A stretch of 61,961 nt of DNA, counting the filler, from Pseudomonadota bacterium (GTDB lineage: Bacteria > Desulfobacterota > Desulfobacteria > Desulfobacterales > JBDRRP01), in assembly GCA_043825735.1 (NCBI GenBank). It is 6 parts of 6 records of this genome, joined end to end, with 100 filler letters (N's around TTAATTAATTAA, not from the genome) between each part and the next. Parts side by side here need not be neighbours in the genome. Positions count along the whole stretch, not along the records: positions 24,222 to 52,316 come from JBDRRP010000144.1; 5 more parts are not named here. One strand, given 5' to 3'. Below are positions 36,015 through 49,083 of the stretch, in pieces (the first letter of the stretch is position 1; every line of letters begins with the position of its first letter). The notes under the pieces are model-generated. The model saw only the letters and a list, made by a program, of their open reading frames with translations. It was not told where the DNA came from and did not search any database. The translations under genes were made by a program, and so were the position numbers.

Positions 36015-36056
36015 TTGACCGGAATATAAACTTTATTTATATACAAAGTATATAAA
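36015..36056 (+). promoter_or_regulatory. Sigma-70-like promoter overlapped by perfect 9-3-9 inverted repeat (candidate PadR operator)
   Basis: TTGACC-17 nt-TATATA; TTTATATAC-AAA-GTATATAAA at 36036-36056. Confidence 0.65.
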
Positions 36057-36069
36057 AACTGGAGGGTTC

Positions 36070-36642
36070 ATGGCGATCAAGTATTCCATCCTCGGTCTGC
36101 TTCACTACCAGCCCATGCACGGGTACCGCATCAAGGAGCACATCGAACGCAATTTCGGACACATGTGGTCCATCAACTACGGACAGATCTACCCCAACCT
36201 GAAGAAGCTCAAAGACGATGGTCTCATCACGATGGCCGAAGAAGTGTGTGAAGGCGAGAAAGGCCCGCCGCGCAAACTTTACACCATTACCGAGGAAGGA
36301 CGTCGCGCCTTCAGGCAGTGGCTGACCGAGTCGCCTGAGCGCGGCATGCTGCTGCGGGACCCTTTTCTCATGCGCTTTGTGTTCTTCGGATTCGGCGAGA
36401 AAACGGACGCGTTGAAGCTCATCGACGATCAGGTCGTTGACTGGGAACGCCAACTGGCCCGCCGTTACGGCAATCTGGCCCGTTGGGAGAATTCAGGGGT
36501 GTATGCACGGCTGATGGGGGAACTGGGGGTCCGGATGAATGAGCTCTTTCTCGATTGGCTGAAATACGCCAGGAAAGAAATTGACGCCGACCTCGAATCC
36601 CGGCCGGCGCTGGTACTGGAGTCTGTGGCAGATGATCAGTGA
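36070..36642 (+). CDS. PadR-family transcriptional regulator
   Basis: ILGLL, HGYRIK, GQIYPNLKKL, RKLYTITEEGR. Confidence 0.93.
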   Translation: MAIKYSILGLLHYQPMHGYRIKEHIERNFGHMWSINYGQIYPNLKKLKDDGLITMAEEVCEGEKGPPRKLYTITEEGRRAFRQWLTESPERGMLLRDPFLMRFVFFGFGEKTDALKLIDDQVVDWERQLARRYGNLARWENSGVYARLMGELGVRMNELFLDWLKYARKEIDADLESRPALVLESVADDQ

Positions 36643-36692
36643 TTTTAACCCGCAGAAGGGTGGTCCGCTTTCCGCACCTCCAGGGAGTCGCG

Positions 36693-37679
36693 ATGGATTA
36701 TGACGGTATCACCCTGGTCACCGGCGCGGCCGGGTTTATGGGCTCGCATGTGGTGGAATATCTTGCCGCGCAGGGCGTGAGGGTGCGCGCAACCGCCCGG
36801 CCAGGAAAGGACACGGCATTTTTTGACCGGCTGGGTGTTGAATTCGTCGGGGCTGATCTTACCCGGCCAGGCACCCTGCCGCCGCTGTTTGAGGGCCCCG
36901 TGGATCGGGTGATCCATTTGGGCGCCATCTGCAACTTTTCCACCCCCTACGAGCGGCTTTACCCAACCAATGTCCTGGGCGTGGGGCATATGGCCGATCT
37001 GGCGTTGAAGGCCGGGGTCCGGTGCTTTGTGCACGTGACCTCCACCAGTGTCTATGGATGCGGCACCGGCGCGCCCTTCACCGAAGAAAGTCCCCGGGCG
37101 CCCAAGGACGACTACGGTCGCAGTAAGCGTGACGGTGAAGATGAACTCTTCCGCAGGATGGATCAGGGGTTGCCGGCGGTGATCGTGCGCCCATGCACGG
37201 TTTACGGCCCCCGCTGCACCGACGGCGCCGGAAAGGCGTTTTCAAGAGCCACCGCCATCGCCGCCATACCGGGCAGCGGTGAACACCTGCTCTCCAACAT
37301 CCGTGCCGAAGACGTAGCCGCTGCAGCGGTCCATCTGTCGCGGCACCCGGCCGCCATCGGGGAGATTTACAACCTGGCCGACGACAGCCATCCGAGCCTC
37401 AAAACAGCGCTGACCCTGGCGGCCAAAACCTTTGGGACAAAGACGCCCGGTCTGCATCTGCCCCTTTTTCTGGTGAGGGCGCTGGCTCGGCTGGACGGTG
37501 TTGTTTCCAGCCTCCGGGGGCGCATCCCGGATCTGGAATACGAGGCGGCCTGTTACCTTTCTGAAGACTATGTCGTGGACAACAGCAAGCTCAAGGCGAC
37601 GGGGTATCGATTCATTTACCCGGACTTTATCGATTCCATGGCTCAGATGGGACAGTGGTACCGGAGCACGCTGCACTGA
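36693..37679 (+). CDS. Extended SDR (NAD-dependent epimerase/dehydratase, 3-beta-HSD-like)
   Basis: VTGAAGFMG, YGRSK, RPCTVYGP. Confidence 0.88.
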   Translation: MDYDGITLVTGAAGFMGSHVVEYLAAQGVRVRATARPGKDTAFFDRLGVEFVGADLTRPGTLPPLFEGPVDRVIHLGAICNFSTPYERLYPTNVLGVGHMADLALKAGVRCFVHVTSTSVYGCGTGAPFTEESPRAPKDDYGRSKRDGEDELFRRMDQGLPAVIVRPCTVYGPRCTDGAGKAFSRATAIAAIPGSGEHLLSNIRAEDVAAAAVHLSRHPAAIGEIYNLADDSHPSLKTALTLAAKTFGTKTPGLHLPLFLVRALARLDGVVSSLRGRIPDLEYEAACYLSEDYVVDNSKLKATGYRFIYPDFIDSMAQMGQWYRSTLH

Positions 37680-37713
37680 GTGCACTGTTAACGAAAACCG
37701 AATCGGAGGGATC

Positions 37714-38544
37714 ATGAGCGAGGTTATTGTGATCACAGGGCTGGCCCAGGGCATGGGAAGGGAGGTGGCCTGTATGCTGGCTGCTTCCGGCGCGTCGGTG
37801 GCCGGGTTCGACATGGATGCCGGCGGCATTGAATCGCTTAAAGCAGAACTGGAAAAAATCGGCGGCGACCACTATCTGACCACCCTGGACATTACCGACC
37901 GGCCGGGTATCCTGGCGTTCAGAGACGCGGTGGTGGCACACTACGGCCGGGTGGATACGGTGCTCTCCAACGTGGGCATCGGGTTTTTCGGCCCCTTCGA
38001 AGAGGTGGATCTGGAGCGCGCCCTCAAATGCCTGGAGATCAACGTCATCGGGGCGGCCGCCATACTGCAGGCCTTTATCGCGCCTATGCGCGCACAGGGG
38101 CGGGGAAAGCTCATCGCCATGAGCTCTCTGGTGGGGCAGATCCCTTTTCCCTTCGAGTCCATTTACACGGCCAGTAAATTCGCCATCGAAGGCCTGGTGG
38201 AATCCATCAAATACGAGGTGGAACCGTTCGGACTGAAAGTCGCCCTTATCGAGCCGGCCCAGGTGTCGACAAGTTTTGCCGCCAAAATTCACACGCTGCC
38301 GCCGGAAGGATCGCCCTATCGGGAAAGGGCAGGGCGCTTCATCAACAGAGACAACCAGCTCATCAAGGGCGCTACGACCCCCGGGCAGGCGGCCCGCCGG
38401 ATCGTCGCGGTGCTCCAGTCGCCGGCGCCGAAACTGCACAACCAGGTCGACTTCATGAGCACGTTCTTTCTCTTTCTCAACTGGTTGCTGCCCAAGTGGG
38501 CACGGGATTGGATTTTGCTCAACCACATGGACATCAAAACATAA
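37714..38544 (+). CDS. Classical SDR oxidoreductase
   Basis: ITGLAQGMG, NVGIG, MSS, YTASK; RBS GGAGG. Confidence 0.9.
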   Translation: MSEVIVITGLAQGMGREVACMLAASGASVAGFDMDAGGIESLKAELEKIGGDHYLTTLDITDRPGILAFRDAVVAHYGRVDTVLSNVGIGFFGPFEEVDLERALKCLEINVIGAAAILQAFIAPMRAQGRGKLIAMSSLVGQIPFPFESIYTASKFAIEGLVESIKYEVEPFGLKVALIEPAQVSTSFAAKIHTLPPEGSPYRERAGRFINRDNQLIKGATTPGQAARRIVAVLQSPAPKLHNQVDFMSTFFLFLNWLLPKWARDWILLNHMDIKT

Positions 38545-38567
38545 ATAGCATCGGTAAAAAGTCAGAA

Positions 38568-38656
38568 TCTCGCGCAGAGACGCAGAGGCGCAGGGAAAAG
38601 CACTCGCGCAATTCCATTTTACGCAGTTCTCAGCGTCTCCGCGCCTCTGCGCGAGA
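38568..38656. repeat. Intergenic inverted repeat built of cgcagag units
   Basis: tctcgcgcagagacgcagaggcgcag ... gcgtctccgcgcctctgcgcgaga. Confidence 0.75.
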
Positions 38657-38727
38657 AAATTGCTTTTTTACGGATTCATCAAGATTCGAATGCCGGCATG
38701 GAAAGTCGGTGGCTTCAGGAGGTGATC

Positions 38728-41109
38728 ATGGAAACAGCATTGGCGACACCCCTTTCCGTTTCCGATACGCGGATCGGCCGATTGCGCGCACGCATCATCG
38801 ATGCGCCACAGGAAGTGTGCATCGAACGGGCACGGTTTCTCACCCGGTCAATGGAAAAGCACTGGGAAGAAGACCCGCTCACCCGGATGAGCCACGCTCT
38901 GGCGCATATTCTTAAAAATATCAGCGTCATCATCCGAGACGACGAGTTGATCGTCGGGTGCCGCACGTCCAAGCTCAAAGGGGCCCCGCTGTTTCCGGAA
39001 AACAAGGCGCGCTGGCTGGAAGGGGACGCGGAAAACTTCGACCGGCGTGAAGTGCAGCGCGCCCTGATCACCGCTGCTGAAAAAACGGAGCTGCTCCAGG
39101 AGATCCTGCCGTTCTGGGCGGGGCGATGCGTCGAAGACGATTTCGAGGCCGCGCTGCCGGACGACATCATGGAGGACATGGACAAGTACATCTTCACCTT
39201 CATGCTGGAGATCACCTACGGCGTCGGCCATTTCACCATGAACCACCGGCAGGTGCTCGAAAAGGGCACCGGGTGCATTATCTCAGAGGCCCGGAAGCGT
39301 CTGGAGAAGTTGCCCGCACACGATCGGAATGGGCAACAGGGGCTCCTTTACCAGGCCATGATCCGTTCGCTCACCGCGGCGGTCACCTTTGCCGGTCGCT
39401 ACGCCGACCTTGCCGAAAAGATGGCCTTCGCCGAAAAGGACCCGGTCCGGGCCGAGGAGCTGCGACAGGTGGCCCGTGTTTGTCGAAGGGTACCCGCGCA
39501 TCCTGCCGAAACGTTCCATGAGGCGGTTCAGGCGATCTATTTTGTCCACCTCATCGCCCAGATCGAATCCGGGGGAAACTCCATCTCTCTGGGGCGGCTC
39601 GACCAGATTCTGTTGCCTTATTATGAGCGGGACATTGCCGCCGGCCGCATCGAGCCGGTCCGGGCCCGGGAGCTGGTGTCACTGCTGTTTCTCAAGATCA
39701 ACGAGATCTGGAACGTTCTGGAGGAAGCTTACATCCCCGGCGGTGAAGGCACCGAAGGAAAAACCACCCAGAACGTGGTGGTGGGGGGCATGGACGCCAA
39801 CGGCCGGGACGCCACCACCGCGCTGAGCTTCATCGTCATGGACGCCTACGCCCAGCTCAGAACGGTGCAGCCCAATTTCGGCGTGCGGCTGAGTCCGGAT
39901 GCGCCCGATCTTTTTTTCGCCCGGGCCGTCAGCTATGCCAAGGACGGCGTGCTGCTTCATTTTTTCAACGATGAGGCCATCGTGGCCTCCCTGGTGGATG
40001 CCGGTCATAGCCTCGAAGACGCGCGCGATTACGGTGTGGTCGGCTGCCTGGAACCGAGCGCCCAGGGAAAGACATTCGGGTCGACCTTTGCCGTTCAGTT
40101 CAACGGCATTAAATGCCTTGAATTCGCCCTGGCCAACGGCGTGGACAACATCTTCGGCTATCTGTCAGGTCTTGAGACCGGCGATCCGGCCGGTTTTACC
40201 GATTTTGAGCAACTGTGGCAGGCCTATGACCGGCAGGTGACCCACTATGTCAAACAGATGGTCCGGGGGATCACCTGCCTCGATGCGGCCATCGCCGCAA
40301 AGGTGCCCTCGCCGTTTGCCTCGGCCATGATCGATGGCCCCATGGACACCGGACGCGATCTCACGCGCGGCGGTGCCGTGTACAATTCGACAGGCGTGCA
40401 GCTCATCGGGTTTTCAAATATCGCCGACAGCCTGACTGCTGTGAAAAAATGTGTCTTCGATGAGGGCCGGTTCACCATGGCGGATCTTTCCCGGTGGCTC
40501 TCCGACGACTGGACCGATGCCGAGTCCGCACAGGCCTATTCTTTGAACAAGGTGCCCAAATACGGAAACGACGACGACGGGGCCGATGCCATGGCCGCGC
40601 AGGTGATGCACCATTTTTGCGACGTCCTTTCCGTCCACACCAACTTTCGCGGCGGGCGTTTCTGGCCGGGGATCTTCTCGGTGGGATTTCACATCACCAT
40701 GGGCGCGTTTACCGGGGCCACCCCGGACGGCCGCTATGCCGGCGACGTTTTGGGAAACGGCATCACGCCCAGCGAAGGACGCGCGGTGTCCGGCCCCACG
40801 GCACTGATGAATTCCGTCGTCAAGCTTCCCTTGCGGCGGGTTACCAACGGACTCAATCTCAACATGCGTTTTGACGGGGAGTCGATCAACCCCGCCATTT
40901 TTCGGAGTATTATCAAAACTTACTTCCAGAAGGGCGGGGTTCAGGTTCAGTTCAACATGGTGGGCACCGCCATGCTGGAAGCGGCACAAAAAGATCCAAG
41001 GAAATACCGCGACCTCATCGTGAGAATCAGCGGCTATTCGGGTATTTTCGTCAACCTGAGCGACATCGCCCAGGAGGAGATTATCCGGCGGACACGCTAT
41101 ACCCTTTAA
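38728..41109 (+). CDS. Glycyl radical enzyme (PFL2/diol dehydratase-like, substrate unknown)
   Basis: CIERA, DELIVG, GRLDQ, Cys loop GCLEP, PKYGND, ATPDGR, Gly loop LIVRISGYS; RBS AGGAGGT. Confidence 0.93.
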   Translation: METALATPLSVSDTRIGRLRARIIDAPQEVCIERARFLTRSMEKHWEEDPLTRMSHALAHILKNISVIIRDDELIVGCRTSKLKGAPLFPENKARWLEGDAENFDRREVQRALITAAEKTELLQEILPFWAGRCVEDDFEAALPDDIMEDMDKYIFTFMLEITYGVGHFTMNHRQVLEKGTGCIISEARKRLEKLPAHDRNGQQGLLYQAMIRSLTAAVTFAGRYADLAEKMAFAEKDPVRAEELRQVARVCRRVPAHPAETFHEAVQAIYFVHLIAQIESGGNSISLGRLDQILLPYYERDIAAGRIEPVRARELVSLLFLKINEIWNVLEEAYIPGGEGTEGKTTQNVVVGGMDANGRDATTALSFIVMDAYAQLRTVQPNFGVRLSPDAPDLFFARAVSYAKDGVLLHFFNDEAIVASLVDAGHSLEDARDYGVVGCLEPSAQGKTFGSTFAVQFNGIKCLEFALANGVDNIFGYLSGLETGDPAGFTDFEQLWQAYDRQVTHYVKQMVRGITCLDAAIAAKVPSPFASAMIDGPMDTGRDLTRGGAVYNSTGVQLIGFSNIADSLTAVKKCVFDEGRFTMADLSRWLSDDWTDAESAQAYSLNKVPKYGNDDDGADAMAAQVMHHFCDVLSVHTNFRGGRFWPGIFSVGFHITMGAFTGATPDGRYAGDVLGNGITPSEGRAVSGPTALMNSVVKLPLRRVTNGLNLNMRFDGESINPAIFRSIIKTYFQKGGVQVQFNMVGTAMLEAAQKDPRKYRDLIVRISGYSGIFVNLSDIAQEEIIRRTRYTL

Positions 41110-41134
41110 CTGGATGAATGTGAGGAGCACGCCG

Positions 41135-42070
41135 ATGAGCAAGGTGATGACCACAAAGGATGCCATCTCCCGGTTCGTGAGCCCCGGCGATTTTCTCTTT
41201 ATCGGGGGCTACATCTGCCGGACACCGTTTTCAGCCATTCACGAGATCATCCGTCAGGGCAAGGGCGATCTCACGATTACCCGAAGCAATGCGGCCGATG
41301 ATTTCGACATGCTCATCGGCGCCGGCCTGGTGAAACGATTCTTCGCCACATTTCTCTCTCTGGGCATTTACGGCCTGGGCCGGTGCTACCGCCGGTCCAT
41401 GGAGCACGGCATTCCCAGAAAGATAGAAGTCGAGGAATACACCAACCTGTCGCTGCCCATGATGCTCAAGGCCGGGGCCTTGGGGATTCCCTTCATACCG
41501 GTGCGCGACATGGTCGGCACGGATCTTCTCAACGTGAAGTCTTTCATGGGCGATGGGAAATACAAGATGATCGACTCGCCCTTCGACGGCAGCCCGACGC
41601 TGCTGGTGCCGGCCCTCAACCCAGATGTGGCCATCATTCATGTTCAGCAGGCCGATGAAGAGGGAAATGCCCAGATCTGGGGCATCGGCGGAGACTGCCA
41701 GATGGGAGCCAACGCAGCCAAAAAAGTGATCGTCACCTGCGAGCGCATCGTGAGCCGGGAGGTCATCGGAAAGGACCCCTCGCGTACCATCGTCCCCGCG
41801 TTCAAGGTGGTGGCGGTGGTGGAAGAGCCCTTCGGCGCGCACCCGGGGTACACGCCGGGGTTTTACGACGTGGATTTCGGTATGGGATACCTCTACCAGC
41901 AGGCCTCCAATACTGTCGAAGGGCTGGACGCCTTTCTCAAGGAATGGGTCTTCGATATCGAAGACCGCAGCGCCTACATCCAGCACTACATCGCACGCTT
42001 TGGCTACGCCGCCTTCAAAAAACTGGCGGCGGCCTTTGATTACAGCTATCCGGTCAACTACGGGTACTGA
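41135..42070 (+). CDS. Family I CoA-transferase subunit A (GctA-like)
   Basis: AIHEIIRQG, AGALGIPF, PALNPDVAIIHVQQADEEGN, PFGAHP. Confidence 0.88.
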   Translation: MSKVMTTKDAISRFVSPGDFLFIGGYICRTPFSAIHEIIRQGKGDLTITRSNAADDFDMLIGAGLVKRFFATFLSLGIYGLGRCYRRSMEHGIPRKIEVEEYTNLSLPMMLKAGALGIPFIPVRDMVGTDLLNVKSFMGDGKYKMIDSPFDGSPTLLVPALNPDVAIIHVQQADEEGNAQIWGIGGDCQMGANAAKKVIVTCERIVSREVIGKDPSRTIVPAFKVVAVVEEPFGAHPGYTPGFYDVDFGMGYLYQQASNTVEGLDAFLKEWVFDIEDRSAYIQHYIARFGYAAFKKLAAAFDYSYPVNYGY

Positions 42071-42107
42071 GGATAACATTGACGTTGCCCCGGCAGATGA
42101 AAGATCA

Positions 42108-42189
42108 ACCACGAAGAACACGAAGATCACGAAGATAAAAACTAAATGCAGTGGAATAAACACTTCGTGATCTTCGTGCACTTCGTGGT
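42108..42189. repeat. Intergenic inverted repeat with 9-nt period (cacgaag x3 / cttcgtg x3)
   Basis: accacgaagaacacgaagatcacgaag ... cttcgtgatcttcgtgcacttcgtggt. Confidence 0.85.
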
Positions 42190-42295
42190 GATAAACCCGT
42201 AGCGGAGTCTAACCGTTGTCACAGTGAAGCTTGGTCATTGTAGATCGACGGAATACATTTTCCCTGCAAACCAGACATTGGAGGGAGCAACCACA

Positions 42296-43096
42296 ATGGG
42301 TACCGATCAAAAAAAGTATATCAAACCGGAGTTGATGGCCTGCTGCGGTGCCAGGGAAATCAAGGACGGCGACGTGGTGATCGTCGGCACCGGGTTTCCC
42401 GCCATGGCAGCCAACATCGCCAAGCACACTCACGCGCCGCGGGCCGTGATGATGCAGGAGTCGGGCGTCATCGACGCCCGGCCCAAGCGTCCGGCCCTGT
42501 CGGTGGGCGATCCCTGCCTGAACCCCGGCGCGGCCATGATCGGCGGACTGGTGGAGATCATGGGCATGGTGCTTCAGGCCGGCTGGGTGGACGTGGGCTT
42601 TCTTTCGGGCAGCCAGGTGGACCGGTTCGGCAACATCAACACCACCGTCATCGGCGATTATCAAAATCCCAAGAGCCGGCTGCCCGGCAGCGGCGGGGCA
42701 AATCCCATCGGCGCCCTGGCCAAAAGGACCCTGATCATCGCCCTGCACGACAAGCGGCGATTGGCGGAAAAAGTCGATTTCATCACCACGGCGGGCTATC
42801 TCGACGGTCCCGGGGCCCGCGAAAAATGGGGGCTCCCGCCAGGGACCGGTCCGCGGTGCATCATCACCAACAAGGCCGTGCTCCGGTTCGACGCGGAGAC
42901 CAAGGAGGCCTACCTTTTTTCCTATCACCCGGACTGCACCATCGAGGAGATCGTGGCCAACACGCCGTGGGACCTTAAGGTCCCGGACAACGTCGGACCG
43001 ACCGAGCCGCCCACCCCGGAGGAGCTGCGGGTGCTTCGGGAAGTTCTGGATCCTCACGGGATGATCCGTATCTATGAAACCAAGGGGTATGTTTAG
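42296..43096 (+). CDS. Family I CoA-transferase subunit B (GctB-like)
   Basis: VGTGFP, QESG (candidate catalytic Glu), QVDRFGNINTT, RLPGSGGA. Confidence 0.88.
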   Translation: MGTDQKKYIKPELMACCGAREIKDGDVVIVGTGFPAMAANIAKHTHAPRAVMMQESGVIDARPKRPALSVGDPCLNPGAAMIGGLVEIMGMVLQAGWVDVGFLSGSQVDRFGNINTTVIGDYQNPKSRLPGSGGANPIGALAKRTLIIALHDKRRLAEKVDFITTAGYLDGPGAREKWGLPPGTGPRCIITNKAVLRFDAETKEAYLFSYHPDCTIEEIVANTPWDLKVPDNVGPTEPPTPEELRVLREVLDPHGMIRIYETKGYV

Positions 43097-43339
43097 AATA
43101 CCATTCCAAATCGAAATCGGGATCGCTATCGAAATCGAAATGTTATTGACGTCGCGTGCCGGACCACGGGGGTATCGGCGGCCTCTCGACAGGCGCCCTG
43201 GAATGAGACGACGTAATGGCTGACGGCCTGGCGGTGTAAATCGATTTCGATCCCGGGGAAATCAACCACCAGTGAAATCAAGTGGTGTGATGAACCCCGA
43301 ATTTTCAATGATCCACGCTTACCGGGAAAGGAAAACCAT

Positions 43340-44707
43340 ATGGACGAAACGCGTCAACTGGCCGCCTTCTGCTCGGCCGTATCACTTTCATCCCTGCCGC
43401 CGGCGGTGGTCCACAAGGCCAAGCTGTGCATACTCGACTACATCGCCAATATCTACGGATCGCTGGAGCTCGACACCGTGTGGAAGGTCGTGAATCTTAT
43501 CCGTTCGGTTGAGGCGGCGGAAAAGATCACCGCCCTGGGTTGCGGGTTCAAGACGGACATCCACCAGGCGGCCTTTATCAACGGCACCACCGCTGAGGCC
43601 ATCGAGGCCCAGGACGGTCTCAGGTTCGGCGGCAACCATCCGGGGGCTGCGGTGATCCCGGCAGCCCTGGCCGTGGCCGAGGAAACCGGTGCCGACGGCG
43701 GTGCGCTGATCGCCGCCGTTGTGGCCGGATACGAAGCGGCCAACCGGTCCGCTGCGGCCATGCACCCCTGGCATACCCTCAACGGGTTTTTGCCCACGGG
43801 AACCTGTGGTACCTTCGGTGCGGCCGTGGCCGCCGCAAAACTCAGGGGCCTGGATGCCGAAGGCCTGCTCAACGCAGTGGGCAATGCAGGATATTTACTT
43901 CCCATTTCCATGGCCGAGCATCTCATGGGCGGGTACACCATCAAGATCGTGCAGGGCGGCCAGGCAGCCAGCGCCGGCATCATGGCCGCTGGACTGGCCG
44001 GCGCCGGCGTCACCGGCGCCCCTTATGTGCTGGAAGGCTCGGCGCTAAATGGGGGGTTCACAAAGATCACTGCCGCCGCCCCGCCCACTCTGGCGCGGAT
44101 CACCGACGGTCTGGGTGAGCACTACTCCATCATGGATATTTACTTCAAGCCCTATACGGCCTGTCGTCACACCCACGGCGCCGCCCAGGCCGCACTGGCG
44201 CTGGCCGAATCCAGGGGCGTCGATCCGGCGGCGATCACCGAGATTCTGGTTGAAACATACGGCATTGCCGAGCTTGCCGTGGGCAAGGGGGTGGGCGCGG
44301 ACAGCTCTTTTGTATCGGCGCAGTTTTCCATCCCCTACGTGGTGGCCGTCTGCCTTACCGACGGCGCCCTGGGGCCTCGGCAGCTTGCTGAAAAGCGCAT
44401 CAAAGATCCGGCGCTGCTCGCTCTGGCGGCGAAGGTTGTGGTCAAAACCGATGAGCAATTCAACAGCGCCTATCCCGGGAAGACCTCCAGCCGAATCACC
44501 ATTTCGTTTATCGACGGAACTTCGGTGTCTGAGCAGGTGGACATCCCCACCGGGGACCCGAGAGATCCGATGGATGCCACCGCCATCGGTGACAAGCTCT
44601 ACCGGTTTGCCGGAGATCGGGACCGGGGCAAGTCGTCGGAAATCATTTCTCTGGTGCTCGATCTGGAAAACCAGCCGGATATCCGGCGGCTGGCGTCGTT
44701 GATCTAG
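43340..44707 (+). CDS. MmgE/PrpD family protein
   Basis: AAFINGT, HPGAAVIPAALA, AVVAGYE, FKPYTACRHTH, AQFSIPY, GDPRDPM. Confidence 0.9.
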   Translation: MDETRQLAAFCSAVSLSSLPPAVVHKAKLCILDYIANIYGSLELDTVWKVVNLIRSVEAAEKITALGCGFKTDIHQAAFINGTTAEAIEAQDGLRFGGNHPGAAVIPAALAVAEETGADGGALIAAVVAGYEAANRSAAAMHPWHTLNGFLPTGTCGTFGAAVAAAKLRGLDAEGLLNAVGNAGYLLPISMAEHLMGGYTIKIVQGGQAASAGIMAAGLAGAGVTGAPYVLEGSALNGGFTKITAAAPPTLARITDGLGEHYSIMDIYFKPYTACRHTHGAAQAALALAESRGVDPAAITEILVETYGIAELAVGKGVGADSSFVSAQFSIPYVVAVCLTDGALGPRQLAEKRIKDPALLALAAKVVVKTDEQFNSAYPGKTSSRITISFIDGTSVSEQVDIPTGDPRDPMDATAIGDKLYRFAGDRDRGKSSEIISLVLDLENQPDIRRLASLI

Positions 44708-44764
44708 AATGCGCTTATGCAAAAAGCTCCAGTTGGTCTTTTCCTAAAGTGATATTGAACCAGT

Positions 44765-44995
44765 CACGGAGGACACGGAGATTTTATAAACAAAATTAAT
44801 CGCTTTTGGTTTTCTCCGTGCCCTCCGTGACTCCGTGGTGATCACAATGTCATCGGGGCCACCGGTCTTTGACGCTAAACTGGCGTTTCATAGAGAAGCG
44901 GAAATTAGAAATCACAACAGAGTCCGCAAAGAGCGCAGAGGCAAACCGTTAATCATGCGATGAGTTCTCTGCGGACCTCTGCGATCTCTGTGGTT
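44765..44995. repeat. Two intergenic inverted repeats with about 9-nt period
   Basis: cacggaggacacggag ... ctccgtgccctccgtgactccgtggt (44765-44839); acagagtccgcaaagagcgcagag ... ctctgcggacctctgcgatctctgtggtt (44913-44995). Confidence 0.75.
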
Positions 44996-45056
44996 CAAAA
45001 TCATTTATGCGATTTCACTCGATTCAAAGGCTTCTCAGTAAAATAAAGGAAAGTTA

Positions 45057-46217
45057 ATGGATTTCAATCTGAGCAAAGAACAAACAATGCTCCTGGAGAG
45101 CCTGCGGGACATGGCCAGACGGGAGAAGTTCAAGGAACTGGCCGCCCACATCGATCGGACAGGGGAGTTTCCCGAGCACCTGATGCCCAAATTCGCCGAA
45201 ATGGGACTTTTGGGGATGACCCTTTCTCCGGAATACGGCGGCGTGGGGGAAAGCGCGCTCACCGCCGTGCTGGCCATCGAGGAGCTCGCCAAATACAGCC
45301 CCATGATCGCCGCGCCGGTCTTCGAGTCCAACGTGGGCCCGGTCCGGGTCATCGACATGTTCGGCACCGCCGCACAGAAAGCCGCCATCATTCCCGGTGT
45401 CTGCCGCGGCGAGAACAGCGTTTCGGTGTGCATGACAGAGCCCGAAGCCGGCTCGGATCTCACCAGCCTCAAAACGTGCGTGGAAGACAAGGGCGACCAT
45501 CTGCTGCTGAACGGGAGAAAGGTGTTCATCACCGGTGGCGGGCACGCCAGTCACTATCTTGTCTACTGCCGGTTCGGTGAAAAACCCGGCTACAAGGCCA
45601 TCGGGGCGGTGATCGCCGAAAAGGGTATGGCCGGTTTTACCTTCGGCAAACAGGAACAATACATGGGCCTTCGGGGGATGCCCTCCTGCGATCTTTTCTT
45701 CGACAATGTGAAAATCCCCAAGGAAAACGTGGTGATCAACAAGGGAGAATTCGGCAATCTGATGATGACCTTCGACATCGAGCGCTGCGGCAACGCGGCC
45801 ATGTGTCTGGGCGTGGCCGGCGGCGCCATGGCGGCGGCCAAAAACTACGCCCTTCAGCGCGAAGCATTCGGAAAGCAGATCTGCGAATTTCAGGCCATCC
45901 AGTTCATGGTGGCCGAGATGGCCATGAAACTGGATGCGGCCAAACTGCTGGTCTACCGGGCCGCCACCGGGGCGGGCCAGGGGTTGCCCTCCATCTACGA
46001 GGCATCCCTGGGCAAGTGCTACGCCAACGAGATGGTCAAGGAAGTCACCGATCTGGCCATTCAGATATTCGGCGGATACGGGTATTCAACCGAGTTCCCG
46101 CTGGAGCGGATGCTCCGGGACGCCCGGGCGTGGGGGGTCGCCGGCGGAACGCTTCAGATGCTCAAGATCACCGTGGCCAGCATGATTTTCGGCAGGCGCT
46201 TCGATCAGCGTAAGTAA
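45057..46217 (+). CDS. Acyl-CoA dehydrogenase
   Basis: MTEPEAGSD, LNGRKVFITGG, REAFGKQI, AIQIFGGYGY. Confidence 0.93.
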   Translation: MDFNLSKEQTMLLESLRDMARREKFKELAAHIDRTGEFPEHLMPKFAEMGLLGMTLSPEYGGVGESALTAVLAIEELAKYSPMIAAPVFESNVGPVRVIDMFGTAAQKAAIIPGVCRGENSVSVCMTEPEAGSDLTSLKTCVEDKGDHLLLNGRKVFITGGGHASHYLVYCRFGEKPGYKAIGAVIAEKGMAGFTFGKQEQYMGLRGMPSCDLFFDNVKIPKENVVINKGEFGNLMMTFDIERCGNAAMCLGVAGGAMAAAKNYALQREAFGKQICEFQAIQFMVAEMAMKLDAAKLLVYRAATGAGQGLPSIYEASLGKCYANEMVKEVTDLAIQIFGGYGYSTEFPLERMLRDARAWGVAGGTLQMLKITVASMIFGRRFDQRK

Positions 46218-46257
46218 CATCCGGATAATCCGGGTCAACCCAAATGGGAGAGACGTC

Positions 46258-46698
46258 ATGAGTCAGTACTATCGGGACGGGGAGCATCTTTACGAAATCT
46301 ACAACTATTTTCTGGATCAGGTGCTGAAGGACGAAAAGATCGGGCCCAAGATGGCCAAGGCCAACATTATTATCAAATTCATCTACACCGACCCGGACTG
46401 CGAGATCACCATCGATCTAAAAAATCCGCCGGCCAAGGAAGGCTATTACGGCACCTTTTACCTCGGGCCCACCGATTTGAAGGAAGATGTCTGGAGCAAG
46501 CAAAGCGCCGACCACTCCCACCGGTTCTGGCACGGGTTCGAGAATCCAGTGGCAGCCGTGACCCGGGGCAAGGTCAAGCAGGGCGGCAAGATCACCGCCA
46601 TGCTCAAACTGCTGCCCGTGGTCAAGCCTACCTTCAAGCGGTTCCCCGAGATCCTTCGGGAAATGGGATACGACGAGCTGGTGGTGACCAAAAAATAG
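46258..46698 (+). CDS. SCP2 (sterol carrier)-like lipid-binding protein
   Basis: ADHSHRFWHG.ENPVAAVTRGKVKQGGKITAMLKL resembles the SCP2 C-terminal pattern. Confidence 0.6.
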   Translation: MSQYYRDGEHLYEIYNYFLDQVLKDEKIGPKMAKANIIIKFIYTDPDCEITIDLKNPPAKEGYYGTFYLGPTDLKEDVWSKQSADHSHRFWHGFENPVAAVTRGKVKQGGKITAMLKLLPVVKPTFKRFPEILREMGYDELVVTKK

Positions 46699-46736
46699 AT
46701 AAGCGGATACCGACTCTTTATTAGGGAAAAATTCCG

Positions 46737-48611
46737 ATGAACGGCAATACCGGAATCATTCTACGCATCGATCTTTCACAGGGCAGAACCACCCTGGAGC
46801 ATTTGCCCGAGGCCGTCTACCGGCAGTACGTGGGCGGCAGCGGACTGGCGGCCAAGTACTTCTGGGAAAACGGCGACTTCGACGCGGACCCGCTCTCACC
46901 GAAGGCCATGCTGATCTTCATGAACGGCCCCTTTGCGGGGCTTCGGCTATCAGGCGCCAGCCGCAGCAGTGTGGCCGGGCGCTCGCCCCTCACCGGGGCC
47001 TGGGGGGATTCTTCCAGCGGCGGGTATTTCGCCCCGGCGCTCCGGTACGCCGGCTTTGACGGCATCGTCATTACCGGCCGCGCGTCGACGCCGGTGCTGT
47101 TGCGGATCCATGACAACGGTGCAGACATCGAGGACGCCGGCCACCTGTGGGGGCGCACCGTCAGCGAGACCGACGCTCAGCTTAAAAGTGACTATGGGAA
47201 GTTCTGTCGGACCCTGGTGATCGGGCCGGCCGGTGAAAACCGGGTGCGATTTGCCAATATCATGGGTGAGGCGCACCACGCCTTCGGCCGGGCCGGGTTC
47301 GGCGCTGTCATGGGCGCCAAGCAGCTCAAGGCCATTTCCGTCACCACCGGTCGGCGGCAAATGAACGTGGCCGATCCTGACGCCTACGCGGCAATACGAC
47401 AGACCATCAACACCCAGGTCCGTGAATCGGTGACGGCCATGGTCCTGGGCGAGCTCGGCACGGCGGCCAAACTGGAATACGGCGTTGCCATGGGGGATGT
47501 GCCCATACGAAACTGGACGTCCAGCACCTGGGAAGAAATGGGGGAGGCCCTCACCGGCAGCACGCTTTCAGAGACCTATCTCACGGGGCGCCGGTCCTGC
47601 GCGTTTTGCAGCATTGCCTGCAAGCGCATCGTCCGGGTGGATGAAGGGCCTTTTGCCGTGTCCAAAGGGCCGGGGCCGGAGTACGAGACCATCGTCTCCT
47701 TTGGCGCGCTGCTGGGGTCCATGGATCTGGCAGCCACCTGCAAGGCCGCCAGGGTCTGCAACGAGGCCGGAATGGACACCATCTCCGCCGGGGCCACCCT
47801 GGCTTGGGCCACCGAGGCCATGGAGAAGGGCGCACTGTCCGATGAGGACACTGGCGGGCTACGGCTGACATGGGGAAACATGTCCGATTATATCGACATG
47901 CTCCAGCGCATTGCCGGAAGACAAGGTCCTTTGGGACGACTTTTGGCCGACGGTAGCGTGGCGGCTGCGATAAAAACAGGAAAGGGCGCCCTTGACTACA
48001 CGGCTCACAGCAAGGGTCTGGAAGCGCCCATGCACGACCCCCGGGGCGGCGGTCACGGTCTGGCCCTGGCCTATGCGGTCAGCCCCCGCGGCGGCTGTCA
48101 CGTGGCAACTGCCATGCTTCCCATGGAATCGGGCGCCTGCTATTACCCGGAAATCGGTTTCGACGTCGAACTGGAGCCCATGACCGACCGGGACAAGGCC
48201 ATGGCGGCTGTGGTGGCCACCGAAATGGGGGCCATCGAAAACAGCGCCTGCTACTGCCAGTTCGCCGACCGGGATCTCACGCTGACCCAGTGGGTGGGAC
48301 TTTTCGACGCCGTGGCCGGCTACGGCTGGGACATCCGCGACATGCTGCGGGCCGGCCGTCGGGTGTTTTATCTCAAACGCCTGCTCAACTACCGCTACGG
48401 TCTGACCGCGGCCGATGACGTACTGCCCCCGCGAATGCTGGAACCGGCCAGCGACGGCGAGCCCGAGGGCATCCGTATGAATTTCTCAAAAATGCTTTCG
48501 GAATTTTACGCCCGCATGGTCATGGACCCGGAAAGGGGGATTCCCCGAAGGGGGGCCCTTGAAGGATACGACATGGCGTCTGAAGCGGATGTGGTGTGGC
48601 CGCCGGCATGA
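46737..48611 (+). CDS. Aldehyde:ferredoxin oxidoreductase family (W/Mo-pterin)
   Basis: ILRIDLS, RSPLTG, IGPAGEN, GRAGFGAVMGAKQLKAI, CAFCSIAC, GPEYET, GMDTIS, HDPRG, RGGCH. Confidence 0.92.
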   Translation: MNGNTGIILRIDLSQGRTTLEHLPEAVYRQYVGGSGLAAKYFWENGDFDADPLSPKAMLIFMNGPFAGLRLSGASRSSVAGRSPLTGAWGDSSSGGYFAPALRYAGFDGIVITGRASTPVLLRIHDNGADIEDAGHLWGRTVSETDAQLKSDYGKFCRTLVIGPAGENRVRFANIMGEAHHAFGRAGFGAVMGAKQLKAISVTTGRRQMNVADPDAYAAIRQTINTQVRESVTAMVLGELGTAAKLEYGVAMGDVPIRNWTSSTWEEMGEALTGSTLSETYLTGRRSCAFCSIACKRIVRVDEGPFAVSKGPGPEYETIVSFGALLGSMDLAATCKAARVCNEAGMDTISAGATLAWATEAMEKGALSDEDTGGLRLTWGNMSDYIDMLQRIAGRQGPLGRLLADGSVAAAIKTGKGALDYTAHSKGLEAPMHDPRGGGHGLALAYAVSPRGGCHVATAMLPMESGACYYPEIGFDVELEPMTDRDKAMAAVVATEMGAIENSACYCQFADRDLTLTQWVGLFDAVAGYGWDIRDMLRAGRRVFYLKRLLNYRYGLTAADDVLPPRMLEPASDGEPEGIRMNFSKMLSEFYARMVMDPERGIPRRGALEGYDMASEADVVWPPA

Positions 48612-48965: not shown

Positions 48966-49083
48966 TTGGCACGGATTACACGGATTACGCGGTCTAAATC
49001 GCCTTTGGCGCGGCAATTAACGCAGTGACCAATCTTTAAAACCGTATAGGCGCCATCCGCGTAATCCGTGTAATCCGTGCCAA
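48966..49083. repeat. Perfect 27-bp inverted repeat with 9-nt period
   Basis: ttggcacggattacacggattacgcgg ... ccgcgtaatccgtgtaatccgtgccaa. Confidence 0.9.

Follow-up and report, generated by a model that had tools for sequence, protein, structure and literature searches.

The window analysed here is a 61,961-nucleotide stretch of DNA joined from six parts of a Desulfobacterales genome (assembly GCA_043825735.1; 6.8 Mb in 160 contigs), and the system in question is a ten-gene cluster built around a glycyl radical enzyme (GRE). Ten intact, co-oriented open reading frames on the plus strand fill positions 36070-48611, all inside one contig (C144, positions 24222-52316 of the window; Table 1). 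Pfam confirmed the family names of nine: a PadR regulator, an epimerase-type short-chain dehydrogenase/reductase (SDR), a classical SDR, the GRE, two CoA-transferase subunits, an MmgE/PrpD protein, an acyl-CoA dehydrogenase (ACAD) and an aldehyde:ferredoxin oxidoreductase (AOR) of the AFOR family. Together with a fold match to SCP2 for the tenth gene product, these results agree with the ten genes that a preliminary description of this DNA had listed. Its remark that microcompartment genes are absent held as well, with 0 matches to the shell family PF00936 in the whole genome, which is 100% complete.

Table 1. Features of the GRE gene cluster, in window coordinates.
Feature	Position	Strand	Basis
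-35-like hexamer TTGACC upstream of padR	36015-36020	+	read from sequence
Palindromic operator candidate TATATAC-N3-GTATATA	36038-36054		conserved upstream of padR in relatives
PadR-family regulator, 190 aa	36070-36642	+	PF03551 (E 1.9e-22) and PF10400
Extended SDR (epimerase/HpnA/3-beta-HSD-like), 328 aa	36693-37679	+	PF01370
Classical SDR, 276 aa	37714-38544	+	PF00106
GRE, putative eliminase type, 793 aa	38728-41109	+	PF02901 and PF01228; C440-L-E442, H168, G769
Family I CoA-transferase subunit A, glutaconate CoA-transferase-like, 311 aa	41135-42070	+	205 bits to 1poi_A
Family I CoA-transferase subunit B, 266 aa	42296-43096	+	201 bits to 1poi_B; QESG Glu kept
Divergent MmgE/PrpD-family protein, 455 aa	43340-44707	+	PF03972 and PF19305
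ACAD, 386 aa, predicted catalytic Glu in LCAD/IVD position	45057-46217	+	Pfam; residue alignment
SCP2-fold lipid-carrier-like protein, 146 aa	46258-46698	+	predicted fold
Tungsten-type AOR (by sequence), 624 aa, accessory	46737-48611	+	PF01314 and PF02730

A scan of one genome per species yielded 75 homologous loci, whose GREs are 59-76% identical to that of the window. Gene order is kept around most of them, and the clustering is therefore beyond chance. The gene cluster, for which conservation in relatives had been proposed as a check, is a real, conserved and uncharacterised operon of uncultured anaerobic bacteria. All 75 loci come from metagenome-assembled genome records of several anaerobic phyla, labelled Syntrophaceae, Smithella, Desulfobacteraceae, Desulfarculus, Desulfomonilia, Spirochaetes/Leptospirales, Dehalococcoidia, Chloroflexia, Actinomycetota, Syntrophomonadaceae, SAR324, Binatia and others. 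Carriers are patchily distributed: 22 of 401 genomes of the order have the operon, the window genome included, and it was not found in the sole same-genus genome compared (97% complete).

Because many of the 75 contigs are short, the 35 wide loci, those that extend 4.5 kb or more upstream and 8.5 kb or more downstream, were counted apart. The classical SDR was the most constant neighbour of the GRE (34 of 35), followed by the extended SDR (33), the ACAD and the SCP2-fold protein (32 each), both CoA-transferase subunits (29), PrpD (29) and PadR (28). The AOR, at first placed in the core set, is an accessory: it was present in 12 wide loci, an aldehyde dehydrogenase (ALDH) in 8, and either one in 19. 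The CoA-transferase/PrpD block, likewise first taken as a fixed part, is dispensable. Among 50 carrier genomes (drawn from the 75 loci for their longer contigs; their completeness is not given), a PrpD orthologue was found in 40 and not found in 10, namely those whose operon is without it. Reduced forms consist of extended SDR, SDR, GRE and SCP2, with or without AOR, in five loci (L011, L015, L023, L038 and L058), of SDR, GRE and ACAD in L004, L029 and L061, and of the GRE without companions in two Binatia. Occasional neighbours include a paraoxonase-like arylesterase (7 loci), an MFS transporter (8), iron-containing alcohol dehydrogenases (6) and, in six loci, a DUF362 gene between the two CoA-transferase genes or after the ALDH gene (L010, L042, L045, L054, L059 and L003); in one locus two periplasmic binding proteins lie within the operon (L069:5309-8043).

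The palindrome ahead of padR was defined from the window first and then counted in relatives. With at most two mismatches it occurred in 29 of 43 padR upstream regions and in 0 upstream of ten other gene types; dinucleotide shuffles gave a mean of 0.2 of 43 and a maximum of 2 in 200. Within the genome, the exact copy is the window site only, with one more site at one mismatch and eight at two. It is probably the operator of PadR, whose binding to it we infer. In locus L068 the operator stands directly before the ALDH gene, which therefore belongs to the unit. A TTGAC hexamer lies ahead of the operator in many relatives; a scan for consensus promoters gave no excess over shuffles, and the TTGACC at 36015 was not called. 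In another locus (L014:6003-7388) a membrane protein gene with no Pfam hit is inserted between operator and padR.

The GRE has the hallmarks of its superfamily, a glycine loop (RISGYS, G769) and a cysteine loop (GCLE, C440) within a predicted ten-stranded barrel, both loops invariant. C440, E442, H168 and G769 did not vary in 73 aligned homologues (73 of 120 listed), so that the CXE motif of eliminases and isomerases (C440-L441-E442) is invariant in these 73 sequences. No cut-off for a characterised enzyme was passed in NCBIfam: the scores and cut-offs in bits were 538/1000 for HpfG, 502/1100 for HypD, 444/1000 for HpsG, 430/1050 for CutC, 512/1109 for PflD, 373/1100 for IAD and 252/1150 for HPAD. 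The broad TIGR01774 model was narrowly missed (668.9/678.2), and none of the 58 GREs tested among the 150 best representatives exceeded a characterised-enzyme cut-off. At 50% identity the clade formed one cluster (68%) among the representatives, the next cluster standing at 42% and others at no more than 45%; nor does the enzyme group tightly with a characterised one, its best solved structure being 37% identical. That structure is glycerol dehydratase (GD; 1r8w), matched by the GRE model with a TM-score of 0.94. The top ten fold matches were diol dehydratases (TM 0.92-0.94, 34-37% identity) and Archaeoglobus fulgidus PFL2, and succinate synthases and decarboxylases ranked only 45-50. By these sequence criteria the enzyme is an uncharacterised GRE of eliminase type in a clade of its own, as the preliminary description had supposed. 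As for traits of X-succinate synthases, the operon holds no candidate small subunit besides the SCP2-fold protein, and identity to BSS and MASS is 24-26%. The nearest sister of the clade (P0121, 42%) is without the catalytic cysteine (GGVEL), has an altered glycine loop and is possibly an inactive paralogue.

C440, E442 and H168 align to Cys433, Glu435 and His164 of GD. A 2026 review of the superfamily (PMC13450708) assigns deprotonation of the C1 hydroxyl in GD to Glu435, with His164 as proton donor to the hydroxyl that leaves. Opposite GD S642 the alignment places V652, a residue type shared with propanediol dehydratase; H281, F333, Y339, D447 and Y640 of GD align to N284, G339, T347, F454 and F650, all invariant in the clade. 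We take these five GD residues to line the glycerol pocket. These exchanges remove two aromatic side chains and put phenylalanine at two formerly polar positions, which tentatively suggests a pocket roomier and less polar than that of GD, the loop 331-344 being poorly modelled. The invariant residues K345, E340 and E343 sit in a loop over the active site.

No activating enzyme is encoded in the cluster, and the two activases of the genome adjoin its other two GREs, on contigs C48 and C93. An activase adjoins the GRE in 9 of the 75 loci; these activases fall into several types that share only 36-76% identity. Each of the 50 carrier genomes tested has at least one activase somewhere. Nine carriers whose sole activase lies outside the operon were examined in that region, and in 7 of them the activase adjoins a GRE of the C93 type; six further regions, chosen by score, are left out of this count. 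A C93-type GRE is present in 37 of the 50 carriers. Within the order it occurs in 16 of 22 carriers vs 63 of 379 non-carriers (odds ratio 13.4), and the control, the C48-type GRE, is likewise over-represented in carriers (9 of 22 vs 26 of 379; odds ratio 9.4); kin are not independent, so that p-values are overstated, and some genomes are in both samples. A shared niche or kinship thus accounts for much of the C93 enrichment. Activases have moved into the operon elsewhere, of the C93 type in L057 (59%) and L061 (52%) and of the C48 type in L041 (55%); the genome of L057 (G195) is without a C93-type GRE, yet carries the C93-type activase inside the operon. The glycine loops differ (RISGYS in the operon GRE, RVTGYN in the C93 GRE, RVSGYS in the C48 GRE), and in the accessible part of PMC13450708 cross-activation is reported mostly between GREs with near-identical loops. 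The window GRE is likely activated in trans by an activase encoded elsewhere, which is probably borrowed from another GRE locus. A specific partnership with the C93-type cassette was considered and is not proven, the control type being likewise enriched.

The C93 locus (L089:6748-11990) is itself a second uncharacterised GRE cassette, with a FadR-like GntR regulator, a GRE (GCLEN, RVTGYN), an activase and a PNPOx-like split-barrel protein; such cassettes occur in 79 of the 401 genomes of the order. On contig C48 (L086:9372-19114) the third GRE, also unassigned, and its activase lie close to genes for a TAXI-type TRAP transporter and for the B subunit of a Gct-like CoA-transferase, and in two genomes (G441 and G422) a C48-type GRE lies directly upstream of the operon's padR. 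In one representative (P0143, 1095 aa) an activase is fused to the GRE N-terminus. In another carrier the only activase adjoins an ordinary MmgE/PrpD gene (L186:5566-7896, G063:C90), with no GRE in the 11-kb region.

The 146-residue protein has no Pfam hit, and PF02036 does not score. Its model (pLDDT 95.5) best matched the SCP2 domain 1ikt in Foldseek (E 8.8e-8); there were 37 matches at E <= 0.001, those listed being SCP2-type. A feature search of the ESM Atlas led to SCP2-labelled clusters (score 0.95), in which 20-40% of members carry the label. As modelled, the protein has an SCP2 fold and is lipid-carrier-like, which bears out its first naming. SCP2-ALDH fusions, found in locus L057 and in all three longer SCP2 homologues recovered, may be one lineage. 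Two of the 150 GRE representatives, P0124 and P0128, carry an N-terminal SCP2 domain, with motifs like those of A. fulgidus PFL2, and are a precedent for pairing a GRE with SCP2. We know of no described SCP2-GRE fusion; their neighbourhoods could be matched to a single 4.3-kb contig, which gave no hint of function. A direct orthology of these fused GREs to the clade was ruled out by a FastTree phylogeny, in which they fall on another branch (84 sequences, midpoint root, the 75 best of the 150 representatives, no characterised sequences included). Elsewhere in the genome, an SCP2 domain is fused to a two-part E1/transketolase-type ThDP enzyme (L087:7909-10443, minus strand, contig C40), and a stand-alone SCP2 gene stands in a run that resembles a TetR regulator, acyl-CoA ligase, ACAD and thiolase (L088:4882-12338, contig C105; scanned for SCP2 only).

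Among the 75 loci, 20 have an AOR, 13 an NAD-linked ALDH and 3 both, with several sequence types of each; AOR and ALDH are interchangeable accessories of the operon. That aldehyde-oxidising enzymes of two unrelated families have been recruited time and again is the strongest sign of an aldehyde product, and with the fusions of SCP2 to ALDH in some lineages it backs the aldehyde intermediate proposed at the outset. The window AOR is tungsten-type as judged from its AFOR N and C domains and its scores (357 bits to 1aor vs 162 to the benzoyl-CoA reductase 4z3w).

CoA-transferase subunit A scores 205 bits against glutaconate CoA-transferase (1poi_A) vs 79 against the next entry, and the Glu of the QESG motif in subunit B, presumably the catalytic residue, is invariant in 48 sequences. 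The two subunits are predicted to form a glutaconate CoA-transferase-like family I enzyme, the substrate side of which is likewise a prediction. The MmgE/PrpD protein did not reach the cut-off for the 2-methylcitrate dehydratase PrpD (44.7/575 bits). It keeps H99, K198 and K266 of the IDS-epimerase (as H100, K202 and K270), has E86, T146 and L151 in place of H85, Y145 and H150, and has Glu in place of D88. In this family the second base is Tyr145, and H85 and H150 bind the second carboxylate (PMC12290011, accessible part). Retention of the catalytic His and both Lys, with loss of the second base and of the two carboxylate-binding His, is compatible with a reaction that needs a single base and an acid that is not a 1,4-dicarboxylate; beta-elimination may be such a reaction.

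The ACAD has G363 at the position of MCAD Glu376 and an invariant E242 in the helix-G position. E242 aligns with a Glu of 1egc where 4p13 has Thr, 1egc being, we take it, a mutant with the LCAD arrangement. LCAD and IVD share this arrangement, found among mammalian enzymes in those for long or branched substrates (PMC11153573, accessible part). Scores stayed below the NCBIfam cut-offs for 3-sulfinopropionyl-CoA desulfinase (336/600) and acryloyl-CoA reductase (326/640), and the second-best solved relative is the caffeyl-CoA reductase CarC (255 bits). The extended SDR falls below all NCBIfam cut-offs (best HpnA, 100/368 bits) and keeps its Gly-rich and YxxxK motifs in 53 aligned sequences; the closest solved relative of the classical SDR is 17-beta-hydroxysteroid dehydrogenase 1, at only 107 bits.

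Taken together, we lean, if only a little past even chances, toward a PadR-repressed catabolic operon in which radical chemistry dehydrates a hydrophobic terminal diol, giving an aldehyde and, from it, an acid and an acyl-CoA. The GRE would act as a C-O-cleaving 1,2-eliminase on a substrate bigger and more hydrophobic than glycerol. With the glycyl radical put in by an activase encoded elsewhere, the Cys440 thiyl radical would abstract hydrogen from the terminal CH2OH and, by analogy to GD, Glu442 would deprotonate the terminal hydroxyl and His168 protonate the neighbouring one, so that water is lost and an aldehyde formed. The SCP2 protein may pass the aldehyde to AOR or to an NAD-linked ALDH, and the acid would then be handled by the CoA-transferase, the ACAD and the MmgE/PrpD protein. 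The last likely acts on a free monocarboxylate, removing its alpha proton and expelling a beta substituent. Ahead of the GRE step, the two SDRs could fix the configuration or redox state of a secondary alcohol; alternatively, they could oxidise a fatty alcohol once it is released. The route first drawn, from GRE to aldehyde, acid, acyl-CoA and enoyl-CoA, stands in its aldehyde step; the SDRs and the MmgE/PrpD protein had no task in it, and the lack of an activase went unmentioned.

As a substrate for such a dehydration, a 1-O-alkylglycerol (monoalkyl glycerol ether) is our lead candidate because it gives every gene a job, although we name it tentatively and the chances are against it. Dehydration would give 3-alkoxypropanal and oxidation 3-alkoxypropionate, from which beta-elimination would free the fatty alcohol, the C3 piece going to acryloyl- or propionyl-CoA. 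Long-chain or isoprenoid 1,2-diols and triterpenoid polyol side chains make up the rest of the hydrophobic diols in question. Stated more broadly, the operon could serve oxygen-independent cleavage of glycerol ether lipids, with the GRE dehydrating or directly cleaving an alkylglycerol, SCP2 channelling the aldehyde, the MmgE/PrpD protein acting as a beta-alkoxy lyase and the activase borrowed; this too is a possibility that we would not bet on.

Several points weigh against a hydrophobic diol. The hydrophobic class is itself a prediction, within which the long-chain diol, glycerol ether, steroid and hopanoid are no more than candidates. The pocket argument takes the five exchanged GD residues to line the glycerol pocket, and residues 331-344 and 652-662 of the GRE model lie below pLDDT 50. 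Both AOR and ALDH are missing from 16 of the 35 wide loci, the SCP2-fused GREs are not sisters of the clade, and no thiolase is among the recurrent neighbours, with an enoyl-CoA hydratase seen adjoining the operon in L004 only. The transporters among the occasional neighbours, MFS and periplasmic binding proteins, are of small-solute type. The active sites of GREs lie buried and accept a narrow range of substrates (PMC13450708), which is awkward for a long chain. Characterised MmgE/PrpD substrates are all 1,4-dicarboxylates in the accessible part of PMC12290011, so that this family and a CoA-transferase nearest to a C5-dicarboxylate enzyme point to a polar acid.

Were the substrate indeed a small polar polyhydroxy acid (e.g., a 2-deoxy-pentonate or lactone), the GRE would dehydrate its terminal diol, AOR or ALDH would yield a 3-hydroxy-dicarboxylate, and the PrpD protein would dehydrate this to a glutaconate-type acid for the Gct-like transferase and the ACAD. 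The resemblance to glutaconate CoA-transferase, the action of PrpD-family enzymes on free acids (PMC12290011), the charged loop over the GRE site (K345, E340, E343), the paraoxonase-like lactonase in 7 loci and the MFS transporter in 8 all speak for it. However, it leaves SCP2 in 32 of 35 wide loci and the SCP2-ALDH fusion unexplained, the PrpD protein is without the H85 and H150 that bind a second carboxylate, and the GRE pocket changes run to non-polar residues, so we consider this route decidedly unlikely. We grade as unlikely, too, though a shade less so, that the GRE itself cuts the ether bond of a mono- or dialkyl glycerol ether, abstracting hydrogen beside a hydroxyl and driving out an alkoxide to give a fatty alcohol and hydroxyacetone or alkoxypropanal; the SDRs, SCP2 and AOR or ALDH would oxidise the alcohol to a fatty acid and the CoA-transferase, PrpD and ACAD take the C3 piece. 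The change of D447 to F454 presumably removes a polar contact near the leaving group, and the five loci with extended SDR, SDR, GRE and SCP2 alone, with or without AOR, hold a gene set sufficient for making use of an alkyl chain. CXE chemistry also lets YbiW and PflD open a C-O bond within a ring (PMC13450708). Against this route, a diether carrying two long chains would not easily enter a buried site, and His168 suits water loss equally.

Less probable again is a C-N lyase acting on a sphingoid amino-diol to release a 3-hydroxy long-chain aldehyde and ammonia, despite a CXE motif as in CutC (PMC13450708), the presence of SCP2, an amidase near the GRE in L031, L034 and L049, and an SDR score of 132 bits against the 3-ketodihydrosphingosine reductase model. 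That score is far under the 400-bit cut-off, the CutC score is 430/1050, a ceramidase-family gene is in only 10 of 50 carrier genomes (a count with no background sample), and the PrpD protein and Gct-like transferase get no role. All ten genes would fit chemically with a lignin-derived arylglycerol or beta-aryl ether, where a 3-aryl-3-hydroxypropanal is oxidised, PrpD dehydrates the acid to a cinnamate and a CoA ester follows. PadR-type regulators often sense phenolic acids, CarC is the second-best solved relative of the ACAD, and the window genome has a hydrolase of the benzoyl-CoA pathway. Yet the ring-opening hydrolase TIGR03200 exceeds its cut-off in 5 of 50 carriers vs 26 of 61 order-level genomes; an aromatic (lignin) substrate is disfavoured and, on our grading, very improbable, the marker leaving room for use of the side chain only. 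There is very little to be said for a non-canonical fumarate-adding enzyme whose alkylsuccinate is processed by the CoA-transferase, MmgE/PrpD protein and ACAD. The same three enzyme types convert methylsuccinate in Pseudomonas (PMC12290011), and a CXE-type A. fulgidus relative was proposed, in a debated assignment, as an alkylsuccinate synthase (PMC8163825, accessible part), but identity to the BSS and MASS structures (ranks 45-49) is low, the operon has no small subunits, the isomerase residues Y145, H85 and H150 are gone, and AOR/ALDH and the SDRs would be unexplained. Finally, the GRE might never be activated in this genome for want of a cognate activase, the operon working without it or decaying. 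The location of both activases beside other GREs and the differing glycine loops would suit this; all ten frames are intact, however, the catalytic residues are invariant, activases of both types have moved into the operon in other lineages and 50 of 50 carriers have one, which leaves it scarcely credible.

Returning to radical dehydration of a hydrophobic diol, the operon would follow the scheme of the HpfG route, with a diol dehydratase first and oxidation of the aldehyde after it, although by cut-offs and pocket residues the GRE stands outside all characterised families. It shares fold and mechanistic Cys, Glu and His with the B12-independent GD of Clostridium butyricum (1r8w) and the GRE propanediol dehydratases (5i2a/5i2g, 9rco), and with the latter also the Val at position 652. 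Unlike these enzymes, the window GRE has no adjacent activase or microcompartment, the five pocket residues are replaced, and its companions are SDRs, SCP2, a Gct-like transferase, a PrpD-type protein and an ACAD. The DHPS dehydratase HpfG dehydrates a 3-substituted propanediol to a 3-substituted propanal, which is the logic of the glycerol ether proposal (PMC13450708). The window GRE nevertheless reaches little more than half the HpfG cut-off. To our knowledge, SCP2 and the acyl-CoA block are not part of HpfG loci. YbiW and PflD, CXE-type isomerases whose ring C-O cleavage is the nearest precedent for ether cleavage, differ in acting on sugar phosphates (PMC13450708) and are 30-33% identical. 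A. fulgidus PFL2 (2f3o) and its kin P0124 and P0128 are also CXE-type GREs of unassigned function, but lie on a separate branch (34% identity to 2f3o). In the methylsuccinate module of Cupriavidus and Pseudomonas a CoA-transferase, an MmgE/PrpD isomerase and an ACAD act jointly on free acid and CoA ester (PMC12290011); that module is without a GRE, and the window PrpD protein is without its second base Tyr and two carboxylate-binding His.

The accessible part of the superfamily review counts six C-O eliminases, all with small polar substrates and none hydrophobic, and its main text holds zero words starting with 'ether' or 'sterol' (PMC13450708). No description of the locus was found in the literature searched for GREs with SCP2, MmgE, ether or lignin, a search in which subscription journals were mostly uncovered and supplements excluded; in their accessible parts PMC8163825, PMC13101534, PMC7077986 and PMC11659651 do not describe it. 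If our reading is right, the chemistry of the family would widen to include an eliminase that takes a hydrophobic substrate and is paired with a carrier protein, and oxygen-free breakdown of greasy diols such as glycerol ether lipids would be an undescribed route. Were the substrate an ether lipid, enzymes would be named for the anaerobic turnover of widely used, stable sediment biomarkers.

Around the operon, the genes on both sides run on the opposite strand and are unrelated to it: a tRNA-editing-domain protein, a pyruvate kinase and a glycosyltransferase to the left, and a beta-lactamase-fold hydrolase to the right. The GC content of the cluster is about that of its surroundings. REP-like inverted repeats with arms of 20-42 bases and short tandem units occupy intergenic positions 38556-38668, 42108-42189, 44762-44832 and 48966-49083.

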